A stretch of DNA of 64,000 nucleotides from a virus. The notes under the pieces were generated by a model. It had not been told where the DNA came from, searched no databases, and was given only the letters and a program-made list of their open reading frames with translations. This document shows, one piece after another, positions 5,310 through 63,981 of the stretch. Position 1 is the stretch's first letter; every line of letters begins with the position of its first letter. The stretch lies in IMG/VR virus record IMGVR_UViG_3300008516_000159. The stretch is one strand, 5' to 3'. The translations under genes and the position numbers were made by a program.

Positions 5310-5635
5310 TAAACCTCTCCTTGATGTTTTGTCGCCAAAAGCTTATCGTTATAATCTTTTATCTTAGTTAAAGTTTCGTTAATCTTATCTTTGTCATAAA
5401 GATGCCTTATGAAGCCATCATATTTATTATCTGGCGGAAGTTTACGAGACAGATCTTGCATCTGTCGGGCTAGAGATTGAACGGAAACTTTGCGCTGCTC
5501 GTCTGAAAGATCTTTCTCGTACTTCAAGTATTCGTCTATATTGGTGTTTATTATATTTAGATCGTCGGCAGGAATGGTTTGATTAGCCGCTTCTGTATCC
5601 TGCTCCAGAAGAGCTAACATATCAAAAAATCTCAT
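5309..5635 (-). CDS. Hypothetical internal head protein candidate
   Basis: MRFFDMLALLE|QD N-terminus; coupled overlaps. Confidence 0.6.
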   Translation of the reverse strand: MRFFDMLALLEQDTEAANQTIPADDLNIINTNIDEYLKYEKDLSDEQRKVSVQSLARQMQDLSRKLPPDNKYDGFIRHLYDKDKINETLTKIKDYNDKLLATKHQGEV

Positions 5636-5742
5636 TTTTCTTCCGTCGGTTTGGTTTCCTTTTTCTTTTCGTCTTTCTTTTTTTTCTTATCTGGAGCGTG
5701 ATTAAGTCCACAAGCTTTGTCTAACACTTCTTTGAGGTTCAT
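5632..5742 (-). CDS. 36-aa lysine-rich micro-protein (not in ORF track)
   Basis: MNLKEVLDKACGLNHAPDKKKKKDEKKKETKPTEEK; AGGAGG RBS; ATGA overlap with next gene. Confidence 0.6.
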   Translation of the reverse strand: MNLKEVLDKACGLNHAPDKKKKKDEKKKETKPTEEK

Positions 5743-5758
5743 TATACCCTCCTAATAT

Positions 5759-13284: not shown

Positions 13285-14197
13285 TAGTTATGATAGTGCG
13301 CTGCAAAATCAAATCAAAACAGCCGGGTTCGATGTGAGGAAAATACCGAAAAGCTTGGACCTTCACTTCAAAACAGATAGCTTCGCAAGTATACCAACCT
13401 GGATAATTAAATTATGTTCTAGCAGAGAAATCAGCCCAGGATCCTTGGCTTTATACTGTGCTGTATCTAATATGTGCTACCACAACAAAGCATTCGCCTG
13501 GGCATCAAGAGAAGAGTTGGCCAGACGGAGTGGATTATCAGTACGCACTGTATATACCAAGCTAAACGAACTTGTAGATGCTGGGGCCATCGTTATTTTA
13601 ACGCAAATGACAAGTATTAACAAAAGCAAATCATTAATATTCAGACTGCCTAAGAGAAACGTGCCTGGCACAAACGAATTCATATCATCTCACAGAGGAA
13701 ATAATGGAAGACAAAAAGAGAGCATGCCGAAATCGGCACGAGGAGCATGCCAAATCCGGCACGAGGAGCATGCCGAATCCGGCATGAGAGAGCATGCCGG
13801 ATTTGACATACGAAGCATAGGAACTAGTAACCATAGGAAGGGAAGCAGAGGAAGGGAAGTAGTAGTACCGAATTTTTCCGCTACGCAGAAAAATTCATCA
13901 AAGAGAGTGAGTAATGTCGCTAGTGAAGCAAAGCTGTTAATCAAAAACTACTATGCTTGGATTAACGATGAGTTGGATTTGTCTTTAACTCCAAGAAAAG
14001 GAGATTTTGATAACGCTCATGAGTTAATCGATCGCAAGGGAGCCAATCCGGAAACATTCTTAAGATTTATAAAAGAGAATGTTAATGATCATTACTTTGC
14101 CAAGACAGACAAACACTTTTCCATTTGGACCTCAGATGGTTTTATATCTTATTACAGCGAAAAATATAACGACATTTTTACAGATGATGTAGAATAA
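13274..14197 (+). CDS. Helix-turn-helix replication-initiator-like protein
   Basis: ALYCAV...AWASREELARRSGLSVRTVYTKLNELVDAGAI (HTH_36/lambda O-like); internal DNA iterons. Confidence 0.7.
   Translation: MSNSSYDSALQNQIKTAGFDVRKIPKSLDLHFKTDSFASIPTWIIKLCSSREISPGSLALYCAVSNMCYHNKAFAWASREELARRSGLSVRTVYTKLNELVDAGAIVILTQMTSINKSKSLIFRLPKRNVPGTNEFISSHRGNNGRQKESMPKSARGACQIRHEEHAESGMREHAGFDIRSIGTSNHRKGSRGREVVVPNFSATQKNSSKRVSNVASEAKLLIKNYYAWINDELDLSLTPRKGDFDNAHELIDRKGANPETFLRFIKENVNDHYFAKTDKHFSIWTSDGFISYYSEKYNDIFTDDVE
13720..13808. repeat. Four 23-24 bp iterons, putative replication origin
   Basis: GAGCATGCC cores at 13720, 13743, 13766, 13790, most with TGCC-N-GGCA dyad; first two periods (23 bp) not a multiple of 3. 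Confidence 0.8.
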
Positions 14198-26964: not shown

Positions 26965-28842
26965 ATGGCCAGTAAGCGGAGTCGACAGTACCAAGAATTC
27001 TTCAATAGACTCAAAATTGCCGCAAAAGACCTTGATTCGAGCAGAGCCATAGAGCTACTCAAGGGCGACGGCGGCTTCGATCTCAACACGTGGCATTGGA
27101 TGACAAGCTACGTTACCGTCACCAACGACAGACGCGAGAGGTACCAAGATTTTGAGAATATGATACAGGTGCCAGAACTCAATCTGGGCTTGGTGAGTTA
27201 CGCCGATGACGGCACGCAGCTAAACGAAAACAATAAAGTTATAGAGATAACCTCTAACAACGAAGATATCGTCAAAACACTAGAGGAAACGTTCTTTGAC
27301 AATTTAGATATGAACGCGGATTTGTGGAGGATCTTTTTTGGCACATGTCAATATGGCGATAATTTTTATGAGCTCATAGTCGACGATAAGAAAAAGAACA
27401 TCATGGCTTTGAAGTATTTGCCGCCTATGAATGTTGAAAGAATCGAAGTCGACGGTAATCTAATGAAGTTTACTGTAGAGAAGCAGGTTACTCAACAAGG
27501 CCAAGAAAAAACAATCTATGCTCATCCGGGCAATCAACAGAAAATTCCATTAGAACCGTGGGAAGTTGTACACTTCAAAATCGAAGATAACAACTATGCC
27601 CCATATGGACGTTCGACATTCGAAGCCGGGCGAAGAACATATAAACAGTTATCCCTCATGGAAGATTCCATGTTGGTTTACCGGCTTGAGCGAGCCCCAG
27701 AAAAGAGAGTTTTTTATGTCGACATTGGTAACCTATCAACTCCAGAAGGCGAAAAATTCATTGAGCGAATTAAAGCCAAGTTTAGAAAGAAGAAATATAT
27801 AGACCCTGAAACGGGCAAAATTAATGAAAAAATGACACCTCTATCCATGTTAGAGGACTTTTGGATTCCAGTAAGAACCGGAGCACAAGGCACACAGGGG
27901 ACGAAGATAGACATCCTCCAAGGGGGAAGGCAGCTCAATGAGATAGATGATACAAAATATTTTAGAGATAAAATTTTAAAGACGATGCACATTCCACCGC
28001 AGTATCTTCAGGAGGGCGGTGGAATGGAGTCGCGCAACTCTCTGAGTCAGATGGATATTAAGTTCGCCAGAACGGTCGAGCGTATACAAAGATACATCAT
28101 CAAGGGCTTAGAGAAAATAGCCATTGTATCCTTGACGTTAAAAGGTTACACTGGTGACGATCTTAGAAATTTCGAGCTTGAGTTAACTCCTCCATCTAGT
28201 ATAGCAGAGTTGCTTGAGTTGGAAGTTATGACACAAAGGATTCAATTAGTTAGCTCTATGCTGACTCTTGAAAATTTTATGCCAAGAAAGTGGATTTACC
28301 GAAACATTATGAAGTTCTCCGACAAAGAGATCGCAGACATAGAAACAGGACTTCAACTCGAGTTGGCATCTCCTCTCAACAAAATGTCTCAAGGCGGCGA
28401 AGGTGGAGGATTTGGAGCCGCACCACCGCTCGGTGGTGTTGGAGAAGTGCCAGGAGCAGCAGGACCTGAGGCTGGCGGTATGGGTATGCCACTGCCGGGT
28501 GCAGAAGCTGGTGGCGAAGTGCTTCCACCTGAAGCCGGTGCAGAAGCCGGTGTAGAAGCTGGTGTTCCACCACCGGAAGCAGAGATGCCGGCTCCGGAAG
28601 CTCCGCTTGGTATGGAAGTTGCCGGTAAAATTATTGATATTGATAGAAAACAGTTCTTGTTTGAGAACCAAGCAGGCATCGCCAAACTGTTGGAATACGT
28701 TAAGCATCGATCAAATATGAACAAAGATAATGATAAGCAAACTATTTCTGAAGATAAAGATACGCCTACGCTATCAAATAGTTATCGCAAACAATTCATC
28801 AGAGGTGAATTCAGAGGACTCAATGAAAGCACAAAGAAATAA
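26965..28842 (+). CDS. Portal protein (T4 gp20-like)
   Basis: QYGDNFY, YGRS..E..RR.YKQL.LMEDSMLVYRLERAPEKRVFYVDIGNL, EDFWIPVR, KFARTVERIQ; Pro/Gly/Ala-rich C-terminal region. Confidence 0.95.
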   Translation: MASKRSRQYQEFFNRLKIAAKDLDSSRAIELLKGDGGFDLNTWHWMTSYVTVTNDRRERYQDFENMIQVPELNLGLVSYADDGTQLNENNKVIEITSNNEDIVKTLEETFFDNLDMNADLWRIFFGTCQYGDNFYELIVDDKKKNIMALKYLPPMNVERIEVDGNLMKFTVEKQVTQQGQEKTIYAHPGNQQKIPLEPWEVVHFKIEDNNYAPYGRSTFEAGRRTYKQLSLMEDSMLVYRLERAPEKRVFYVDIGNLSTPEGEKFIERIKAKFRKKKYIDPETGKINEKMTPLSMLEDFWIPVRTGAQGTQGTKIDILQGGRQLNEIDDTKYFRDKILKTMHIPPQYLQEGGGMESRNSLSQMDIKFARTVERIQRYIIKGLEKIAIVSLTLKGYTGDDLRNFELELTPPSSIAELLELEVMTQRIQLVSSMLTLENFMPRKWIYRNIMKFSDKEIADIETGLQLELASPLNKMSQGGEGGGFGAAPPLGGVGEVPGAAGPEAGGMGMPLPGAEAGGEVLPPEAGAEAGVEAGVPPPEAEMPAPEAPLGMEVAGKIIDIDRKQFLFENQAGIAKLLEYVKHRSNMNKDNDKQTISEDKDTPTLSNSYRKQFIRGEFRGLNESTKK

Positions 28843-32012: not shown

Positions 32013-32034
32013 TTTTTAAGGAGGGTATATACCC
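32013..32034 (+). promoter_or_regulatory. MCP ribosome-binding site with 12-bp perfect palindrome GGGTATATACCC; putative sRNA target
   Basis: TTTTTAAGGAGGGTAT at 32013-32028 is identical to 54102-54117; palindrome 32023-32034 ends at the ATG. Confidence 0.75.
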
Positions 32035-33555
32035 ATGGTAGATAAGAGACGTTTACTTAGGGAAGAGGAAGGACGTCTTCTAGGCAAGTGGGAACCTTTT
32101 CTTGAAGGTATCGAAGATAACTATGTCAAAATAAATACCGCAATGCTACTTGAGAATGAGGCCGAGTACCTCACTGAAGCAGCTGATAACACCGCGGCAG
32201 CTGACGTAGTCGGTATCCAAAAGATCATGCTTCCAATCGTAAGGCGTGTTTTCCCTAACCTTATTGCAAACAATATCGTTTCAGTGCAGCCAATGGCTGG
32301 ACCTGCCGCAGTAATCTTTTATCTGAAATATGTCTTTGGCACAACCAAGGGCAACGTGACACAGGGTGCTGAGTATTCTGCGTTTTCCGCAGCCGCACCG
32401 ATGAGCCACCCAGATGAAGGTTGGCAGGGATATTCTCCTTACTACTCCAAACAAGTTATAGGACCGTTTGTTTCTAGCACCACCGGCGCAACCGTTGTTT
32501 ACAACTTGGTCACGTTATCAAATGGTTTTACCAATACTGGCCATAAGTTCGCTGCATGTATCACTGCAACAGGAGCTATTACAGGTACTATTATTCGTGA
32601 AGTTGCTACAGACCTTGATACTAGCACACCTGGAGGCGAAATTCCTTATAGCTTCACAGGTACTGCTGGCACAAGCGCTGGCGTTGTTTATGATGTTTAT
32701 GGCAACGTGTCTACCGATTTCACAGTAACAGGCCTTGACGTTGGTACAGCTGTCACAATAACAAACGCTCTCAATAATGATGACTTTACTGTCGAGATCA
32801 ACTATGAGATCGACATGGAGTTCAGTACAGAGATTCCTGAAATGAAGATCACTATCTCCCAGATTCCAGTCGTTGCAAAGACCAGAAAGCTAAAGGCCCA
32901 CTGGTCCAACGAAGCTGAACAAGATCTGAAGGCTTATCACAACTTGAATGCTGAAGCCGAACTTACTTCTCTCGTATCTAATGAAATGATTGCTGAGATT
33001 GACCGCGAGATCGTGAGAAAGTGCATGTGGAGTTCAGCAACAAGAGATAAGTTTAATTGGAGATGGGATTCCAATAATAATACAGTAGGTAACTACCTTG
33101 ACAGACACCTTGCTCTGACAAACAAGATTATCGAAGTTTCAAACGAGATCTACAGAAAGAGTAAGATTGGTCCTGCCAACTGGATCGTTACATCTACAAA
33201 GATTGCTTCCCAGCTCGAAGTCCTTCGTGGCTTCATTCCTAACCCAGTTACAGCTACAGGCGGTCTCGGTATCGTCAAGGCTGGTAACTATGCTGGTAAG
33301 TTTGACGTGTACAAAGATCCACTATTTCCAGAAGAGAAGATTCTATTGGGTCACAAGAGCCCAATGTCTCCATTTGGCGCTGGTGTAGTTTACTCACCTT
33401 ACGTCACGCAACTGACGCCCGTAATTTATGGTCCTGAAGACTTCACACCAAGACGTGGTTTTATCGCTCGTTACGGCCTCACAAAGGTCCCACACGGCGA
33501 ATTACTCTACGCCTTAATGGATGTGGATTTCAGAACTGATGAAGGCACTGTGTAA
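32035..33555 (+). CDS. Major capsid protein (T4 gp23-like)
   Basis: LLGKWEPFLEG, AMLLENE, PIVRRVFPNLIANNIVSVQPM.GP, KTRKLKA.WS.E.EQDL, EIDREI, GVVYSPYV; probable cleavage LTE48|A49. Confidence 0.97.
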   Translation: MVDKRRLLREEEGRLLGKWEPFLEGIEDNYVKINTAMLLENEAEYLTEAADNTAAADVVGIQKIMLPIVRRVFPNLIANNIVSVQPMAGPAAVIFYLKYVFGTTKGNVTQGAEYSAFSAAAPMSHPDEGWQGYSPYYSKQVIGPFVSSTTGATVVYNLVTLSNGFTNTGHKFAACITATGAITGTIIREVATDLDTSTPGGEIPYSFTGTAGTSAGVVYDVYGNVSTDFTVTGLDVGTAVTITNALNNDDFTVEINYEIDMEFSTEIPEMKITISQIPVVAKTRKLKAHWSNEAEQDLKAYHNLNAEAELTSLVSNEMIAEIDREIVRKCMWSSATRDKFNWRWDSNNNTVGNYLDRHLALTNKIIEVSNEIYRKSKIGPANWIVTSTKIASQLEVLRGFIPNPVTATGGLGIVKAGNYAGKFDVYKDPLFPEEKILLGHKSPMSPFGAGVVYSPYVTQLTPVIYGPEDFTPRRGFIARYGLTKVPHGELLYALMDVDFRTDEGTV

Positions 33556-36705: not shown

Positions 36706-37077
36706 TTACGGTATTAGTTGACCTTTTTCTTTCAAAAGCCACTTTGCCTGTTGCTTTTTCAAGCTGCTGATCATCTTGATTATTACTTCGGCCGAATGAA
36801 GGCTGCATTTTAGTTTGCTGGCAAAATACTCCACCTTCCCGGCGTGAGCATTCCCGTCAAATTCATCCTGATGAAAGAAATACCAGCCGTTATTGTATAC
36901 TATCAAATGGTATTCGTCACCAGCTCCAGGAAAACCGAACCGGCCGACGTTCCAACCTACTAGTAATTTATATCTAGTCCCGTCGCCGGGTTGGAACTCA
37001 TAAAACCACATATCAAATGCACCCTTCATTGTAGGGGTACATTTGTACTCTGAACCATCGTTCATCTCTGTTTTCAT
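36706..37077 (-). CDS. Hypothetical early protein
   Basis: First gene after promoter at 37097; AGAGG RBS. Confidence 0.65.
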   Translation of the reverse strand: MKTEMNDGSEYKCTPTMKGAFDMWFYEFQPGDGTRYKLLVGWNVGRFGFPGAGDEYHLIVYNNGWYFFHQDEFDGNAHAGKVEYFASKLKCSLHSAEVIIKMISSLKKQQAKWLLKEKGQLIP

Positions 37078-45386: not shown

Positions 45387-45654
45387 AAAATACTTTTATT
45401 TTTATATTTTTAAGATTGGTTGGGTGTCAGAATTTACCAGTATGCAGTTTTATTTGGTAGAGTATGAAAAAGTGGGCCCAGCTGATCATTATTTTTTCAG
45501 GGTAGTTAAAGATTATTCCGAGATTTTTCAAGGAGGTAGGGTACCCAACTGGTCGGGCAAGCAAACCTATAGATTTCTTAAACATGTTTACAAAGAAAAT
45601 TACAAAACCATGAAGCGTCGGTTTATACGTGCTGTGTTAGAACCAGGACGATGA
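45352..45654 (+). CDS. Cassette paralog 1
   Basis: MAI..EL..GKKYF ... YKENYKTMKRRF. Confidence 0.7.
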   Translation: MAIKKSELIRGKKYFYFYIFKIGWVSEFTSMQFYLVEYEKVGPADHYFFRVVKDYSEIFQGGRVPNWSGKQTYRFLKHVYKENYKTMKRRFIRAVLEPGR

Positions 45655-46279
45655 CAAACAAATTGAGTTCATAAATGGCAATAACTAGATCTGAACTAGA
45701 AAAAGGTAAAAAATTTTTTTATTTCAGAGTAATTAAGATTGGTTGGGACGAAAAGCTTCTCAGCATAAGCTTCTATTTGGTGGAATACGAGCAGTACAAC
45801 CCGCCTTATTTTTTCAAGGTGTTAAAGGACTATTCCAAGATTTTCTCGTCAGGACTGCCGTCCGATTGGTCAAGCAGGCAAACCGCTAACTCACTTAAAA
45901 ATGTTTATAAAGAAAATTACAAAACCATGAAGCGTCGGTTTGTACGTGCACTATTAGGACCAGGACTATGACAAACAAATTGAGTTCATAAATGGCAATA
46001 AGAGAATACGAATTAGACGACGGCGAAAAATATTTCTTTTTCGCAGCACATAAATTTCCGAGTGGTAGTGTGTCAATCAGATTGCTGCTGATGAAGTATA
46101 TTTATGAGCATCAATATAGAGTGGGTGGCCGTTGTTACAAATTTAAAATCTTGAAAGATTATTTTGATATTTGGCCCGGAGCTTCTGTAAAACCGCCGCA
46201 AAAACCCGGCGATCTATATCAAGTATATGTTTTGAAGCATCTATACAAAGAAAATTACAAAACCATGAAGCGTCGGTTT
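45592..46279 (+). repeat. 33-bp perfect repeat x3 (45592, 45909, 46247) and 34-bp junction repeat x2 (45651, 45968)
   Basis: AAAGAAAATTACAAAACCATGAAGCGTCGGTTT; ATGACAAACAAATTGAGTTCATAAATGGCAATAA. Confidence 0.9.
45675..45971 (+). CDS. Cassette paralog 2
   Basis: Same terminal motifs as paralog 1. Confidence 0.7.
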   Translation: MAITRSELEKGKKFFYFRVIKIGWDEKLLSISFYLVEYEQYNPPYFFKVLKDYSKIFSSGLPSDWSSRQTANSLKNVYKENYKTMKRRFVRALLGPGL

Positions 46280-46309
46280 GTACGTACAATATTAGGACCA
46301 AAAATGTGA
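45992..46309 (+). CDS. Cassette paralog 3
   Basis: Same terminal motifs as paralogs 1 and 2. Confidence 0.7.
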   Translation: MAIREYELDDGEKYFFFAAHKFPSGSVSIRLLLMKYIYEHQYRVGGRCYKFKILKDYFDIWPGASVKPPQKPGDLYQVYVLKHLYKENYKTMKRRFVRTILGPKM

Positions 46310-53602: not shown

Positions 53603-54013
53603 CTATGTGCCGAGCTGACCGTCCGGGTATATTATGCGAACATCTTTATTTTGCCGTCTAGCATATCTTACCGTCATCCAGGTGCCGCTTCTTAGTTCTT
53701 CTTTGTTTCCTTTAGGACAGGCAAGTAAGATTTCTGTAGCATCAACAATATCTCGGTTTCTAACCCAATACTCCTTGTCTTTGTATATCTTTGCGGCTCC
53801 CTTTGAGTATGCACACAACACCTTTTTTATGGGAGGGTGCTTATGCACCGGTATACCTAAATGTACCAAAGCTATAATATGCGCCTGGGCATCAGCACCG
53901 ACGCAATCTCCGTGATGGAACTCCTCAGGGTCCAGCTCGCTAAGAATCGCCTCGACAATCTTGCGTTGTTTAACAGTCATGCCGATTTTTGTTCCAGTAA
54001 ATCCTACCTTCAT
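53603..54013 (-). CDS. SLOG/DprA-like family protein
   Basis: VGFTG, HHGDCVGAD..AH, RNRDIV, LRSGTW.TVRYAR. Confidence 0.75.
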   Translation of the reverse strand: MKVGFTGTKIGMTVKQRKIVEAILSELDPEEFHHGDCVGADAQAHIIALVHLGIPVHKHPPIKKVLCAYSKGAAKIYKDKEYWVRNRDIVDATEILLACPKGNKEELRSGTWMTVRYARRQNKDVRIIYPDGQLGT

Positions 54014-54063
54014 GATAATCTCCTATATGTAACATATTATATATATGTAAAGTGGTAAAGCAT

Positions 54064-54091
54064 AAAAAAACCGGGTTCGGATGAACCCGGT
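54064..54091 (-). terminator. Rho-independent terminator ending the putative sRNA
   Basis: ACCGGGTTC-ATCC-GAACCCGG-T7 on minus strand. Confidence 0.85.
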
Positions 54092-54178
54092 CTAAACTGG
54101 TTTTTTAAGGAGGGTATTTTACCAGTTTACTCAACGTGCGGTTGAGTTGTGATTTAAATATTCATCCTCAATAAGATT
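54064..54178 (-). ncRNA. Putative ~115-nt trans-acting sRNA antisense to the major capsid protein RBS
   Basis: Own promoter and terminator; no meaningful ORF; hairpin loop AAAAUACCCUCCUUAAAAA complementary to 32013-32028. Confidence 0.7.
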
Positions 54179-54184
54179 ACCTGT

Positions 54185-54213
54185 ATAATAACACATATTA
54201 CTAATATTGTAAA
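54185..54213 (-). promoter_or_regulatory. Sigma70-type early promoter for putative sRNA
   Basis: TTTACA-atattagtaatatgtgt(17)-TATTAT with TGn. Confidence 0.75.
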
Positions 54214-54251
54214 GATAAAGATATATAGCTATATATGCGTCGAGAAAAACA

Positions 54252-54524
54252 ATGTCTATCCCCAATCTAGTGTTTGGCCAGTTTTTATTAGAGTTTGACA
54301 AACTCGCGCCCGAAATACTGCACAAGGCCTTGGCTATACAAGCCAAGGAGCGCAGTGCTCGTCTCAGAACAAGCCACCGTCTTTTGGGACAGATTCTACT
54401 AGAAGATTTCAAAGTGTTTAAGAATAGAGTAGAGTTGGAACACTATCTCGTAAAGTTCAAAGAATATAATAGTTATGTTGAAAATCTTTATGGCGATCTA
54501 AAAATCATACCGAAGAGAAGCTAA
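54252..54524 (+). CDS. Stand-alone MshEN-like protein
   Basis: FGQFLLEFDKLAPEILHKALAIQ and RLLGQILLE match the spacing of RLGxxLLxxGLIxxxxLxxxLxxQ. Confidence 0.55.
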   Translation: MSIPNLVFGQFLLEFDKLAPEILHKALAIQAKERSARLRTSHRLLGQILLEDFKVFKNRVELEHYLVKFKEYNSYVENLYGDLKIIPKRS

Positions 54525-62763: not shown

Positions 62764-63981
62764 ATGGCAAGAACGGAATTAAAAGCCGACCAAATAGAAG
62801 AGACATCGTTTGATGACGCCGTCAACACTGCAGTAACTACAGGTACATCTTCTGACGCTGTGGTCAACACAGCTGGCGACATTATGTCGGGAGATCTGGT
62901 AGTTCCTAATTTAGAAGTAACCGGAGACATAGACGCGGCAACAATTATTACTCTTAATTCTGGTCAAACTGGCGCAGCCTCTTTAGATGGAAATATTACA
63001 ATAGAAAGAGGTGATGATACTGATTCTAAATTGAGATGGAATGAAACAGACGACACTTGGCAATTTGATTTAGGAGATGGTGTTTCTAGAAATATATCTA
63101 CATTCACAAGCGCTGCTTCTTTTCCATCTCCAGCAAAAGCAGGAATGGTTTGTTGGAGGACAGATGAAGAAAAATTATACACACACAATGGTACATCATG
63201 GGAAAGTTGTATAACTCAAACAGTTACAAATGGCGTTACAAACAGGGTACCGTCAGAAGATGCTGTTTATGATGCAATCGACGCTCTATTCACAAGCGCT
63301 ACTTCTTTTCCATCTCCAGCAACAGCAGGAATGGTTTGTTGGAGGACAGATGAAGAAAAATTATACACATACAATGGCACATCATGGGAATTAGATGGGG
63401 GAAGTTGTATAACTCAAACAGTTACAAATGGCGTTACAGACAGAGCGCCGTCAGAAGATGCTGTTTATGATGCAATCGACGCTCTGCTGCCCATAGGTAT
63501 CGTTCTTCCGTATGGTAAAGCTGGGCAGATCGCGAATGTGGCTTCACGCTCGGTACAAATAGGTGATGACGGTAGTGATGTCATATCGATGCCGGGATGG
63601 TATGTCTGCAACGGTAATTCTGGTACACCGAATCTCATAGATAAGTTTATCAGAGGCGAAAGTACGGTAGGAAATATTGATGGAAGCGACAGTGCAACTC
63701 ATAATCATACCACACCTGCCCACTCTCATGGTGCGGGTAGTTATTGGGCCAAGATAGGACATGAAACCGACAATTTGTGTAACGTGCCTGTTGGAAACAC
63801 TTTTACGTCTGTTGGTCACCTCGACTGTGATTCTCCACAAGCTGCCAATAGGACTAATGTTCAGGGAAGTGATATTGCTGGTACTTCATCAACAGAGAGT
63901 CCGACTACGAATAATAACACGGTGGCAACTGACAACAGACCGGCTTATTATAGTCTAATTTTCATTATAAGGATATCATAA
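62764..63981 (+). CDS. Tail fibre-like protein with collar-like domain
   Basis: ITIERG...LRWNETDDTWQ; LPIGIVLPY...PGWYVCNG..GTPNL.DKFIRG. Confidence 0.8.
   Translation: MARTELKADQIEETSFDDAVNTAVTTGTSSDAVVNTAGDIMSGDLVVPNLEVTGDIDAATIITLNSGQTGAASLDGNITIERGDDTDSKLRWNETDDTWQFDLGDGVSRNISTFTSAASFPSPAKAGMVCWRTDEEKLYTHNGTSWESCITQTVTNGVTNRVPSEDAVYDAIDALFTSATSFPSPATAGMVCWRTDEEKLYTYNGTSWELDGGSCITQTVTNGVTDRAPSEDAVYDAIDALLPIGIVLPYGKAGQIANVASRSVQIGDDGSDVISMPGWYVCNGNSGTPNLIDKFIRGESTVGNIDGSDSATHNHTTPAHSHGAGSYWAKIGHETDNLCNVPVGNTFTSVGHLDCDSPQAANRTNVQGSDIAGTSSTESPTTNNNTVATDNRPAYYSLIFIIRIS
63103..63486 (+). repeat. 186-bp (62-aa) intragenic tandem duplication; second copy has a 12-bp (LDGG) insertion
   Basis: FTSA.SFPSPA.AGMVCWRTDEEKLYT.NGTSWE...SEDAVYDAIDAL twice; copies start at 63103 and 63289. 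Confidence 0.9.

Follow-up and report, generated by a model that had tools for sequence, protein, structure and literature searches.

Most of what is known about trans-acting small RNAs (sRNAs) comes from bacteria, together with a few temperate phages and prophages; virulent T4-like phages have, to our knowledge, provided very few examples. Three described systems come closest to the locus considered here. The c4 RNA of phages P1 and P7 carries loops that bind around the ribosome-binding site (RBS) of a phage mRNA and block its translation (PMC12197685). In Staphylococcus aureus, RNAs of the Rsa/RNAIII class use unpaired UCCC-type loops to bind Shine–Dalgarno (SD) sequences and prevent the formation of the initiation complex (PMC2790875). 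CisR, an sRNA from the 3′UTR of prtV, is reported to act on the cep mRNA of CTXφ, and is thus a 3′UTR-derived sRNA controlling a phage mRNA (PMC13250501). Among the phage sRNAs covered by a 2025 review, none has a capsid gene as its target (PMC12197685).

The DNA analysed here (hereafter the window) is a stretch of 64,000 nucleotides from an uncultured T4-like phage with genes for portal, terminase, gp13 and RtcB; the longest contig carrying the window's proteins is 191 kb. A phage database gave no match to the window at the DNA level, and at the protein level returned distant relatives only, the best match of the major capsid protein (MCP) being 35% identical. Contigs L009–L013, which encode identical proteins, are 100% identical to the window and so represent the same phage, adding no comparative information. 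SRR3085416, SRR3085435 and JGI 3300008517 also contain the sequence of the window. A first-pass annotation had proposed an sRNA at 54064–54213 whose loop is antisense to the capsid RBS. The site falls within the region 54014–54251, which separates a block of minus-strand genes from a block of plus-strand genes starting at 54252. The reading that we prefer, with a probability of roughly 0.4, is that the unit found there specifies a functional trans-acting anti-SD RNA directed above all at the capsid RBS. The evidence for this reading, and for the explanations that compete with it, is set out below.

A predicted promoter-to-terminator unit

The locus comprises the following features, all on the minus strand:

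54185–54213, minus strand: sigma-70-type promoter TTTACA-N17-TATTAT, score 10/12, with TG before the −10 box and a predicted start at ~54178
54064–54178, minus strand: predicted non-coding transcript of ~115 nt, deduced from motifs only
54127–54166, minus strand: remnant of a gene termed geneX (last 12 codons and stop, ..SPMNIEIKTQLHVE and stop in relatives), with TAA at 54156–54154 in the window versus GAA
54147–54129, minus strand: hairpin 1, CUCAAC/GUUGAG, part of the geneX remnant
54093–54129, minus strand: hairpin 2, from folding, with a 9-bp stem (UAAACUGGU/ACCAGUUUA) and a 19-nt A/U-rich loop containing ACCCUCCUU
54102–54117, minus strand: seed AUACCCUCCUUAAAAA, a 16-mer with exact complementarity to the MCP RBS
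54064–54093, minus strand: intrinsic terminator with an 11-bp stem (6 G-C), a 4-nt loop and U7, 100% identical in relatives L014 and L016
54031–54059, minus strand: TTTACC-N17-TATGTT, a separate promoter serving the 136-aa gene downstream (relatives read TATATT here)
53603–54013, minus strand: 136-aa gene, SLOG/DprA-like, phrog_289, downstream of the unit and our anchor for finding relatives
53552–52428, minus strand: rtcB, next after the 136-aa gene

The promoter placed at 54213–54185 by the first-pass annotation is present, and has in addition a TG before its −10 box. The same pattern had been noted at other promoters, and a motif search of the window bears this out: four minus-strand sites fit TTTAC(A/C)-N17-TAT(A/T/G)(A/T)T (54213, 54059, 53599 and 37125), and in three of the four, 54213 among them, TGn precedes the −10 box. 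At 54059, 53599 and 37125 the motif is followed after 17–19 nt by an ATG that has a good SD; these starts are those of the 136-aa gene, of rtcB and of a gene at 37077, respectively. Because the same motif occupies this position before three real minus-strand starts, the 54213 site can be assigned to a small class of promoters with a fixed position, noise is an unlikely explanation for it, and a stand-alone unit running from promoter to terminator without an ORF is therefore plausible. The ~115-nt unit indeed contains no usable ORF, as had been claimed, its sole ATG opening the sequence MNI and then a stop.

The 119-nt stretch folds as three adjacent hairpins with an energy of −34.6 kcal/mol (z = −5.3), and none of 200 shuffled sequences was as stable. 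Folding reproduced the 9-bp stem and 19-nt loop originally ascribed to hairpin 2, with the arms at 54129–54121 and 54101–54093 and the loop, AAAAUACCCUCCUUAAAAA, at 54120–54102. The terminator was also correctly called strong: its 11 pairs at 54093–54064 form a G+C-rich stem-loop followed directly by the U-tract, as in intrinsic terminators generally. Scanning the window for other hairpins with a CCUCC loop and a following terminator yielded none comparable. Motifs and fold were computed, and it is from them that we infer transcription of the unit.

This layout resembles that of the C-rich-loop sRNAs of Firmicutes (RNAIII, RsaA/RsaE), with a 5′ hairpin, an unpaired and conserved C-rich loop and a terminator; the motif here, ACCCUCC, is unpaired in the loop and has no substitutions across three lineages. 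At the level of motifs, the unit also has the RNAIII/Rsa-type combination of its own promoter and a Rho-independent terminator with no ORF. The Firmicutes RNAs, however, are encoded on bacterial chromosomes and have several targets, whereas the unit belongs to a phage, shows only one C-rich loop and shares no homology with those RNAs.

Read in the opposite direction, the loop presents a perfect AAGGAGG on the plus strand. T4 RegB cleaves GGAG in SDs, and it is conceivable that a plus-strand SD in the loop of an antisense or late transcript acts as a decoy for ribosomes or for a RegB-type nuclease, or that it is the relic of a gene start. We regard this as very unlikely, since the minus strand carries the terminator, the promoter motifs and, in relatives, the genes on both flanks, since on the plus strand the strong stem is not immediately followed by a U-tract, and since no start codon is found at SD distance in any lineage. 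That last observation agrees with the view of the first-pass annotation that this AAGGAGG is not a working RBS. A plus-strand gene start was considered as a candidate and rejected for the same lack of a start codon, together with the minus-strand orientation of the relatives' genes on both sides.

Complementarity to the capsid ribosome-binding site

The proposed action of the minus-strand unit as an anti-SD RNA depends on its relation to two features elsewhere in the window:

32013–32028, plus strand: candidate target, the SD region of the MCP gene, with a 16-mer that is the exact complement of the loop
32035–33555, plus strand: Gp23-type MCP gene, from protein annotation, with its ATG at 32035

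The perfect 16-nt complement first reported between the loop and the SD region of the capsid gene was recovered at these positions and is unique in the window apart from the loop itself: TTTTTAAGGAGGGTAT has exactly two sites, 32013 and 54102, even when two mismatches are allowed, and none of 100 shuffles had two matches. The partial matches that had been reported at other RBSs are real, and lie at 5752 (minus strand) and 31127.

A loop-exposed complement to the RBS of a phage gene is a trait of the c4 type, here amounting to 16 perfectly matched nucleotides within a 19-nt loop. Like c4 from the immI operon of P1/P7, the unit is predicted to be a structured small RNA of a phage with a loop complementary to the RBS region of a phage mRNA. 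The differences are nevertheless substantial. The c4 RNA is processed from the transcript of its target's own operon, whereas here the RNA would come from 54064–54178 on the minus strand and the target lies at 32013–32028 on the plus strand; c4 controls an antirepressor in temperate phages, whereas here a T4-like phage is concerned, and the candidate target is a structural gene of the late class at a distance of 22 kb; and the unit has no sequence or Rfam similarity to c4. The unit is a member of neither the c4 family nor the Rsa/RNAIII class.

The chance of such a match had been put at ~3e-5 for a given 16-mer, with a warning that the true value would be higher. The warning was justified and the figure was too low: when CCUCC was held fixed and the 14 A/U-rich flanking letters were permuted, 14 of 5000 loops (0.3%) matched at least 16 nt in the 64-kb window. 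For a whole genome, the chance of a 16-nt loop match is ~1%, before allowing for the post-hoc selection of the case. Furthermore, the loop 18-mer has two unrelated matches in a viral contig collection, one of which is an ordinary RBS. The match is therefore unusual but not astronomically so, and given these chance levels, the post-hoc choice and the occurrence of the 18-mer as an RBS in an unrelated contig, it is not decisive alone. Its weight lies in the combination with the conservation of the loop and the promoter class.

The interaction scan against phage RBSs that the first-pass annotation had suggested was run on the window, which covers 64 kb of the ~191-kb genome. In a duplex scan of both strands, with the self-complement excluded, the MCP RBS was the best partner at −23.1 kcal/mol, 5.6 kcal/mol ahead of the next site. 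The second-best partner (−17.5 kcal/mol) is the RBS of a 36-aa lysine-rich ORF (5632–5742, minus strand), preceded by AGGAGGGTAT. The scaffold gene RBS reached −13.8 kcal/mol, and several other starts fell between −13 and −17 kcal/mol. When the 115-nt RNA was cofolded with 110 SD-bearing starts, MCP again ranked first, with a gain of −13.9 versus −10.8 kcal/mol. By these models MCP is the leading but unproven target. As a separate observation, the RBS of the 36-aa ORF is the only other one in the window with a capsid-type extended SD.

The spread of weaker partners raises a second possibility, namely that hairpin 2 is a functional anti-SD element that is not specific for the capsid. It might bind many strong SDs, whether of the host, of competing phage or of the phage's own late genes, or it might act in cis on its own message, at the upstream gene's SD in relatives or, after read-through, on the downstream gene. 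CCUCCUU is the motif at the 3′ end of 16S rRNA, and the CCUCCUU of the loop mimics this anti-SD. The several other starts that pair at −13 to −17 kcal/mol are consistent with broad action, as is the fact that the pairing potential shared among relatives consists mainly of the generic AAGGAGGG core. In one relative, L014, the predicted minimum-energy fold pairs CCUCC in cis with GAGGAG. On the other hand, the non-SD flanks AUAC and AAAAA are conserved to the same degree as the core, and their match to the MCP leader is exact both in the window and in the relative L019. Action on the downstream gene is opposed by that gene's own conserved promoter and by the pairing with its SD (UAGGAGAU), which by inspection extends over just 5 bp. 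Taken together, an anti-SD hairpin with no preference for the capsid seems to us rather improbable.

Anatomy of the locus in relatives

Two relatives of the 136-aa protein, at 83% identity, are found on short metagenome contigs, namely L016 and L014, the latter not differing from L015 over this stretch. Both carry the hairpin 2 loop and the identical terminator upstream of the 136-aa gene. In both, a same-strand ORF, geneX, enters the element, and its TAA stop forms the first three bases of the hairpin 2 5′ arm region. The ORF ends in ..YSPMNIEIKTQLHVE and stop in L016 and in ..YSPVDIEIKTQLHVE followed by a 14-residue acidic extension in L014, and because the two ends are homologous as proteins, geneX is taken to be real in these phages. 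It is the GAGGAG codons of this C-terminal extension with which CCUCC is predicted to pair in L014. With a stop codon directly before it, the module of hairpin 2 and terminator is thus a 3′UTR element in the relatives. An in-frame TAA in geneX of L016 (L016:77–79), with the frame open on both sides, points to a pseudogene or to an error (contig coverage 2.4×).

The window looks different. Homology with the relatives begins at ~54166, and the sequence upstream of ~54167, promoter included, is unrelated. The frame of the remnant reads ATG AAT ATT TAA (GAA in the relatives) and then ITTQPHVE-stop, and no second copy of geneX was found in the window. Since the end of geneX in the relatives aligns with hairpin 1, the small hairpin CUCAAC/GUUGAG described at first is present but is in fact the decayed C-terminal coding remnant, the last 12 codons, of a gene that relatives retain. 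The comparison indicates that geneX has been lost from this phage and that the hairpin–terminator module now stands directly behind a promoter. The original notion of a free-standing sRNA gene is plausible for the window, with its promoter-to-terminator unit, and fails for the relatives, where the element is the 3′UTR of an upstream gene. A degenerate gene start had also been entertained; a plus-strand start is excluded by the relatives' flanking genes, both on the minus strand, and it is a degenerate gene end that makes up the 5′ third of the unit.

A seed and terminator after a same-strand stop codon, the trait of 3′UTR-derived sRNAs, are present in both L014 and L016, and a seed hairpin and terminator directly after the stop in relatives recall CisR and the CpxQ/SroC type of enterobacteria; an RNA of this kind would have its terminator in common with the mRNA of the parent gene. 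The window differs in having no parent gene and a promoter directly upstream, from which independent transcription is predicted.

The same anatomy is open to a plainer explanation, which we rate as somewhat less probable than an anti-SD RNA: the unit may be the inert, leftover 3′ end of the deleted geneX, an internal deletion having joined geneX's own promoter to it. The role of hairpin 2 and the terminator would then be to end and stabilise transcripts and insulate the 136-aa gene and rtcB, and the capsid match would be a coincidence between an A/U-rich CCUCC loop and a strong, A/T-rich SD. The relatives' ORF, which stops at hairpin 2 in its 5′ arm, is expected on this account, and so is the nonsense-mutated remnant in the window, in which 19 nt separate the ATG from the −10 box, the spacing of real starts. 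A conditional match chance of 0.3% per window and the presence of the loop 18-mer at an ordinary RBS of an unrelated viral contig are compatible with coincidence, and the unit could be the recent product of a deletion, with its decay still to come. In the window, however, there is no same-strand upstream gene left to terminate, yet the module is undecayed while the adjoining remnant decays, and the capsid RBS stands 5.6 kcal/mol clear of the next site.

Conservation of the module

The relatives that carry the module make up three lineages in total, the window included. Compared with the window, the 136-aa gene of L014 and L016 is 88% and 86% identical in nucleotide sequence, respectively, and 82% and 75% identical at third codon positions. 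Variable columns among the three lineages are distributed as follows:

136-aa coding sequence: 77 of 411 (19%)
Downstream promoter and leader: 8 of 50
geneX remnant: 9 of 37
Hairpin 2 and terminator: 2 of 65

The two variable columns of the module are due to L014 and fall in the 5′ arm, at its overlap with the coding extension. Across the three lineages the 19-nt loop has no substitutions where ~3.6 would be expected (p ~0.02), and it changes only by single-base indels, located in the run of A that follows the 16-mer on its 3′ side. These indels all fall outside the 16-mer, so AUACCCUCCUUAAAAA is intact in the three lineages. Changes specific to the window number 4 of 37 in the remnant, all of them non-synonymous or nonsense, and the module has none in its 65 columns (Fisher p = 0.015), which points to a relaxed constraint on the remnant.

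These counts, from three lineages, give moderate support for purifying selection on the loop sequence, since a hairpin that serves just to stabilise or terminate a transcript has no need of an unchanging loop. With its G+C-rich stem and U7, and its position between codirectional genes in the relatives, the module does resemble a plain terminator with a stabiliser hairpin. Such modules, however, tolerate changes in the loop and compensatory changes in the stem, whereas the loop here is invariant and mirrors an RBS. The same point weighs against an inert leftover, for which a fixed loop is not needed, yet none of the 19 loop positions has changed as against 19% of neighbouring coding positions.

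Capsid leaders of the relatives

The leaders of MCP genes from related phages compare with the loop as follows:

L019, MCP identity 94%: leader with the identical 16-mer, match of 16 nt
L020, MCP identity 90%: leader TTTTAAGGAGGGaTAT (GGGaTAT), match of 12 nt and then a bulge
L018, MCP identity 84%: leader TTTTTcAGGAGGGTAT (TTcAGG), 10 nt perfect, one mismatch, 5 more
L025, MCP identity 80%: leader aTTAAGGAGGGTATT, match of 14 nt, shifted
L023, MCP identity 77%: leader TAGGAGGAAT, match lost

The core of the MCP leader, AGGAGGGTAT, is kept down to 80% MCP identity, and the predicted pairing with the unchanged loop amounts to −19 to −23 kcal/mol. Covariation between loop and capsid RBS, which had been put forward as a check on the proposal, was not seen: the loop is invariant and the RBS flanks drift, leaving a match of 10–14 nt in relatives. 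Among the known loops there is no compensatory change for the RBS changes of L020, L018, L025 and L023, although it is uncertain which contigs belong to one genome: sample 3300009488, which contains L015 and L020, also has a second related MCP, that of L025. The absence of covariation is one point in favour of an inert remnant of geneX, but it does not decide for or against a specific interaction.

Between the capsid SD and the AUG lies a perfect 12-nt palindrome, GGGTATATACCC (32023–32034), which is found in the window and L019 only, and not in L020, L018 or L025. It spans the end of the SD, so that the last SD bases could form a small hairpin.

Searches for further copies and known families

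No Rfam family was found at threshold, either for the region, searched to E 10, or for the whole window at gathering scores; the best sub-threshold matches were unrelated sRNAs with E of at least 0.28. A pattern scan for the element or its terminator gave 0 matches in viral contigs, L015 only (already known) in metagenome contigs, and eight matches in genome contigs, all of them unrelated palindromes. Syntenic relatives were also sought with gp13 as the anchor, which led to one usable candidate.

The IMG/VR relatives of the 136-aa gene (41–53% identity) are without the element, and two of them have three tRNA-like genes in its place. In one such contig (L001:2680–2925, equal to L002), whose homologue of the 136-aa protein is 53% identical, reading by eye shows the three tRNA-like genes followed by a TTTACA-type promoter at the position of the module.

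A possible mechanism and its implications

If the unit does act on the capsid RBS, an early promoter of the host type would drive a non-coding RNA of ~115 nt, with its end set at the intrinsic terminator. Its working part would be hairpin 2, showing ACCCUCCUU in the 19-nt A/U-rich loop, and this loop would serve in trans as an anti-SD seed for strong SDs, above all that of the capsid gene, where 16 contiguous pairs could be extended by UACC/GGUA. Pairing would block binding of the 30S subunit, so that capsid synthesis would be delayed or tuned. We infer the trans action, the direction of the effect and the capsid as physiological target from the complementarity and conservation computed above. 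The module would have originated as the 3′UTR of an upstream early gene, and with the loss of that gene here it would have come to lie directly behind a promoter. That all of these steps took place, so that a lytic T4-like phage, having lost an early gene, now uses the 3′UTR of that gene as an independent early sRNA occluding the phage's own MCP RBS, we consider unlikely as a complete scenario.

Were it true, the RNA would represent a timer or brake, at the RNA level, on the synthesis of virion protein, and it could act also on the near-identical capsid leaders of co-infecting relatives. Post-transcriptional control by RNA would be added to the early-to-late switch of large lytic phages, and the locus would illustrate the birth of an sRNA gene from a 3′UTR upon loss of the parent gene. 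The module would be a compact and portable device for masking an RBS, which can be placed in synthetic constructs even though the phage is uncultured.

Other features of the window

Several further observations concern other parts of the window. The portal-sized ORF (26965–28842) encodes 625 aa, and the portal of the 189-kb relative L018, contig Ga0206071_10095772 (L018:4217–6790), has 857 aa and includes an intein-splicing domain (PF14890). Dispersed exact repeats of at least 16 nt occur inside tandem paralogous genes at ~45.5–46.2 kb (window 45500–46300), and a fibre-like gene contains a duplicated segment at 63155–63370. Finally, the hairpin scan revealed close-spaced long inverted and direct repeats of the CATGCCGGATTCGGCATG type at 13723–13790 (minus strand), within a gene for a 307-aa protein.
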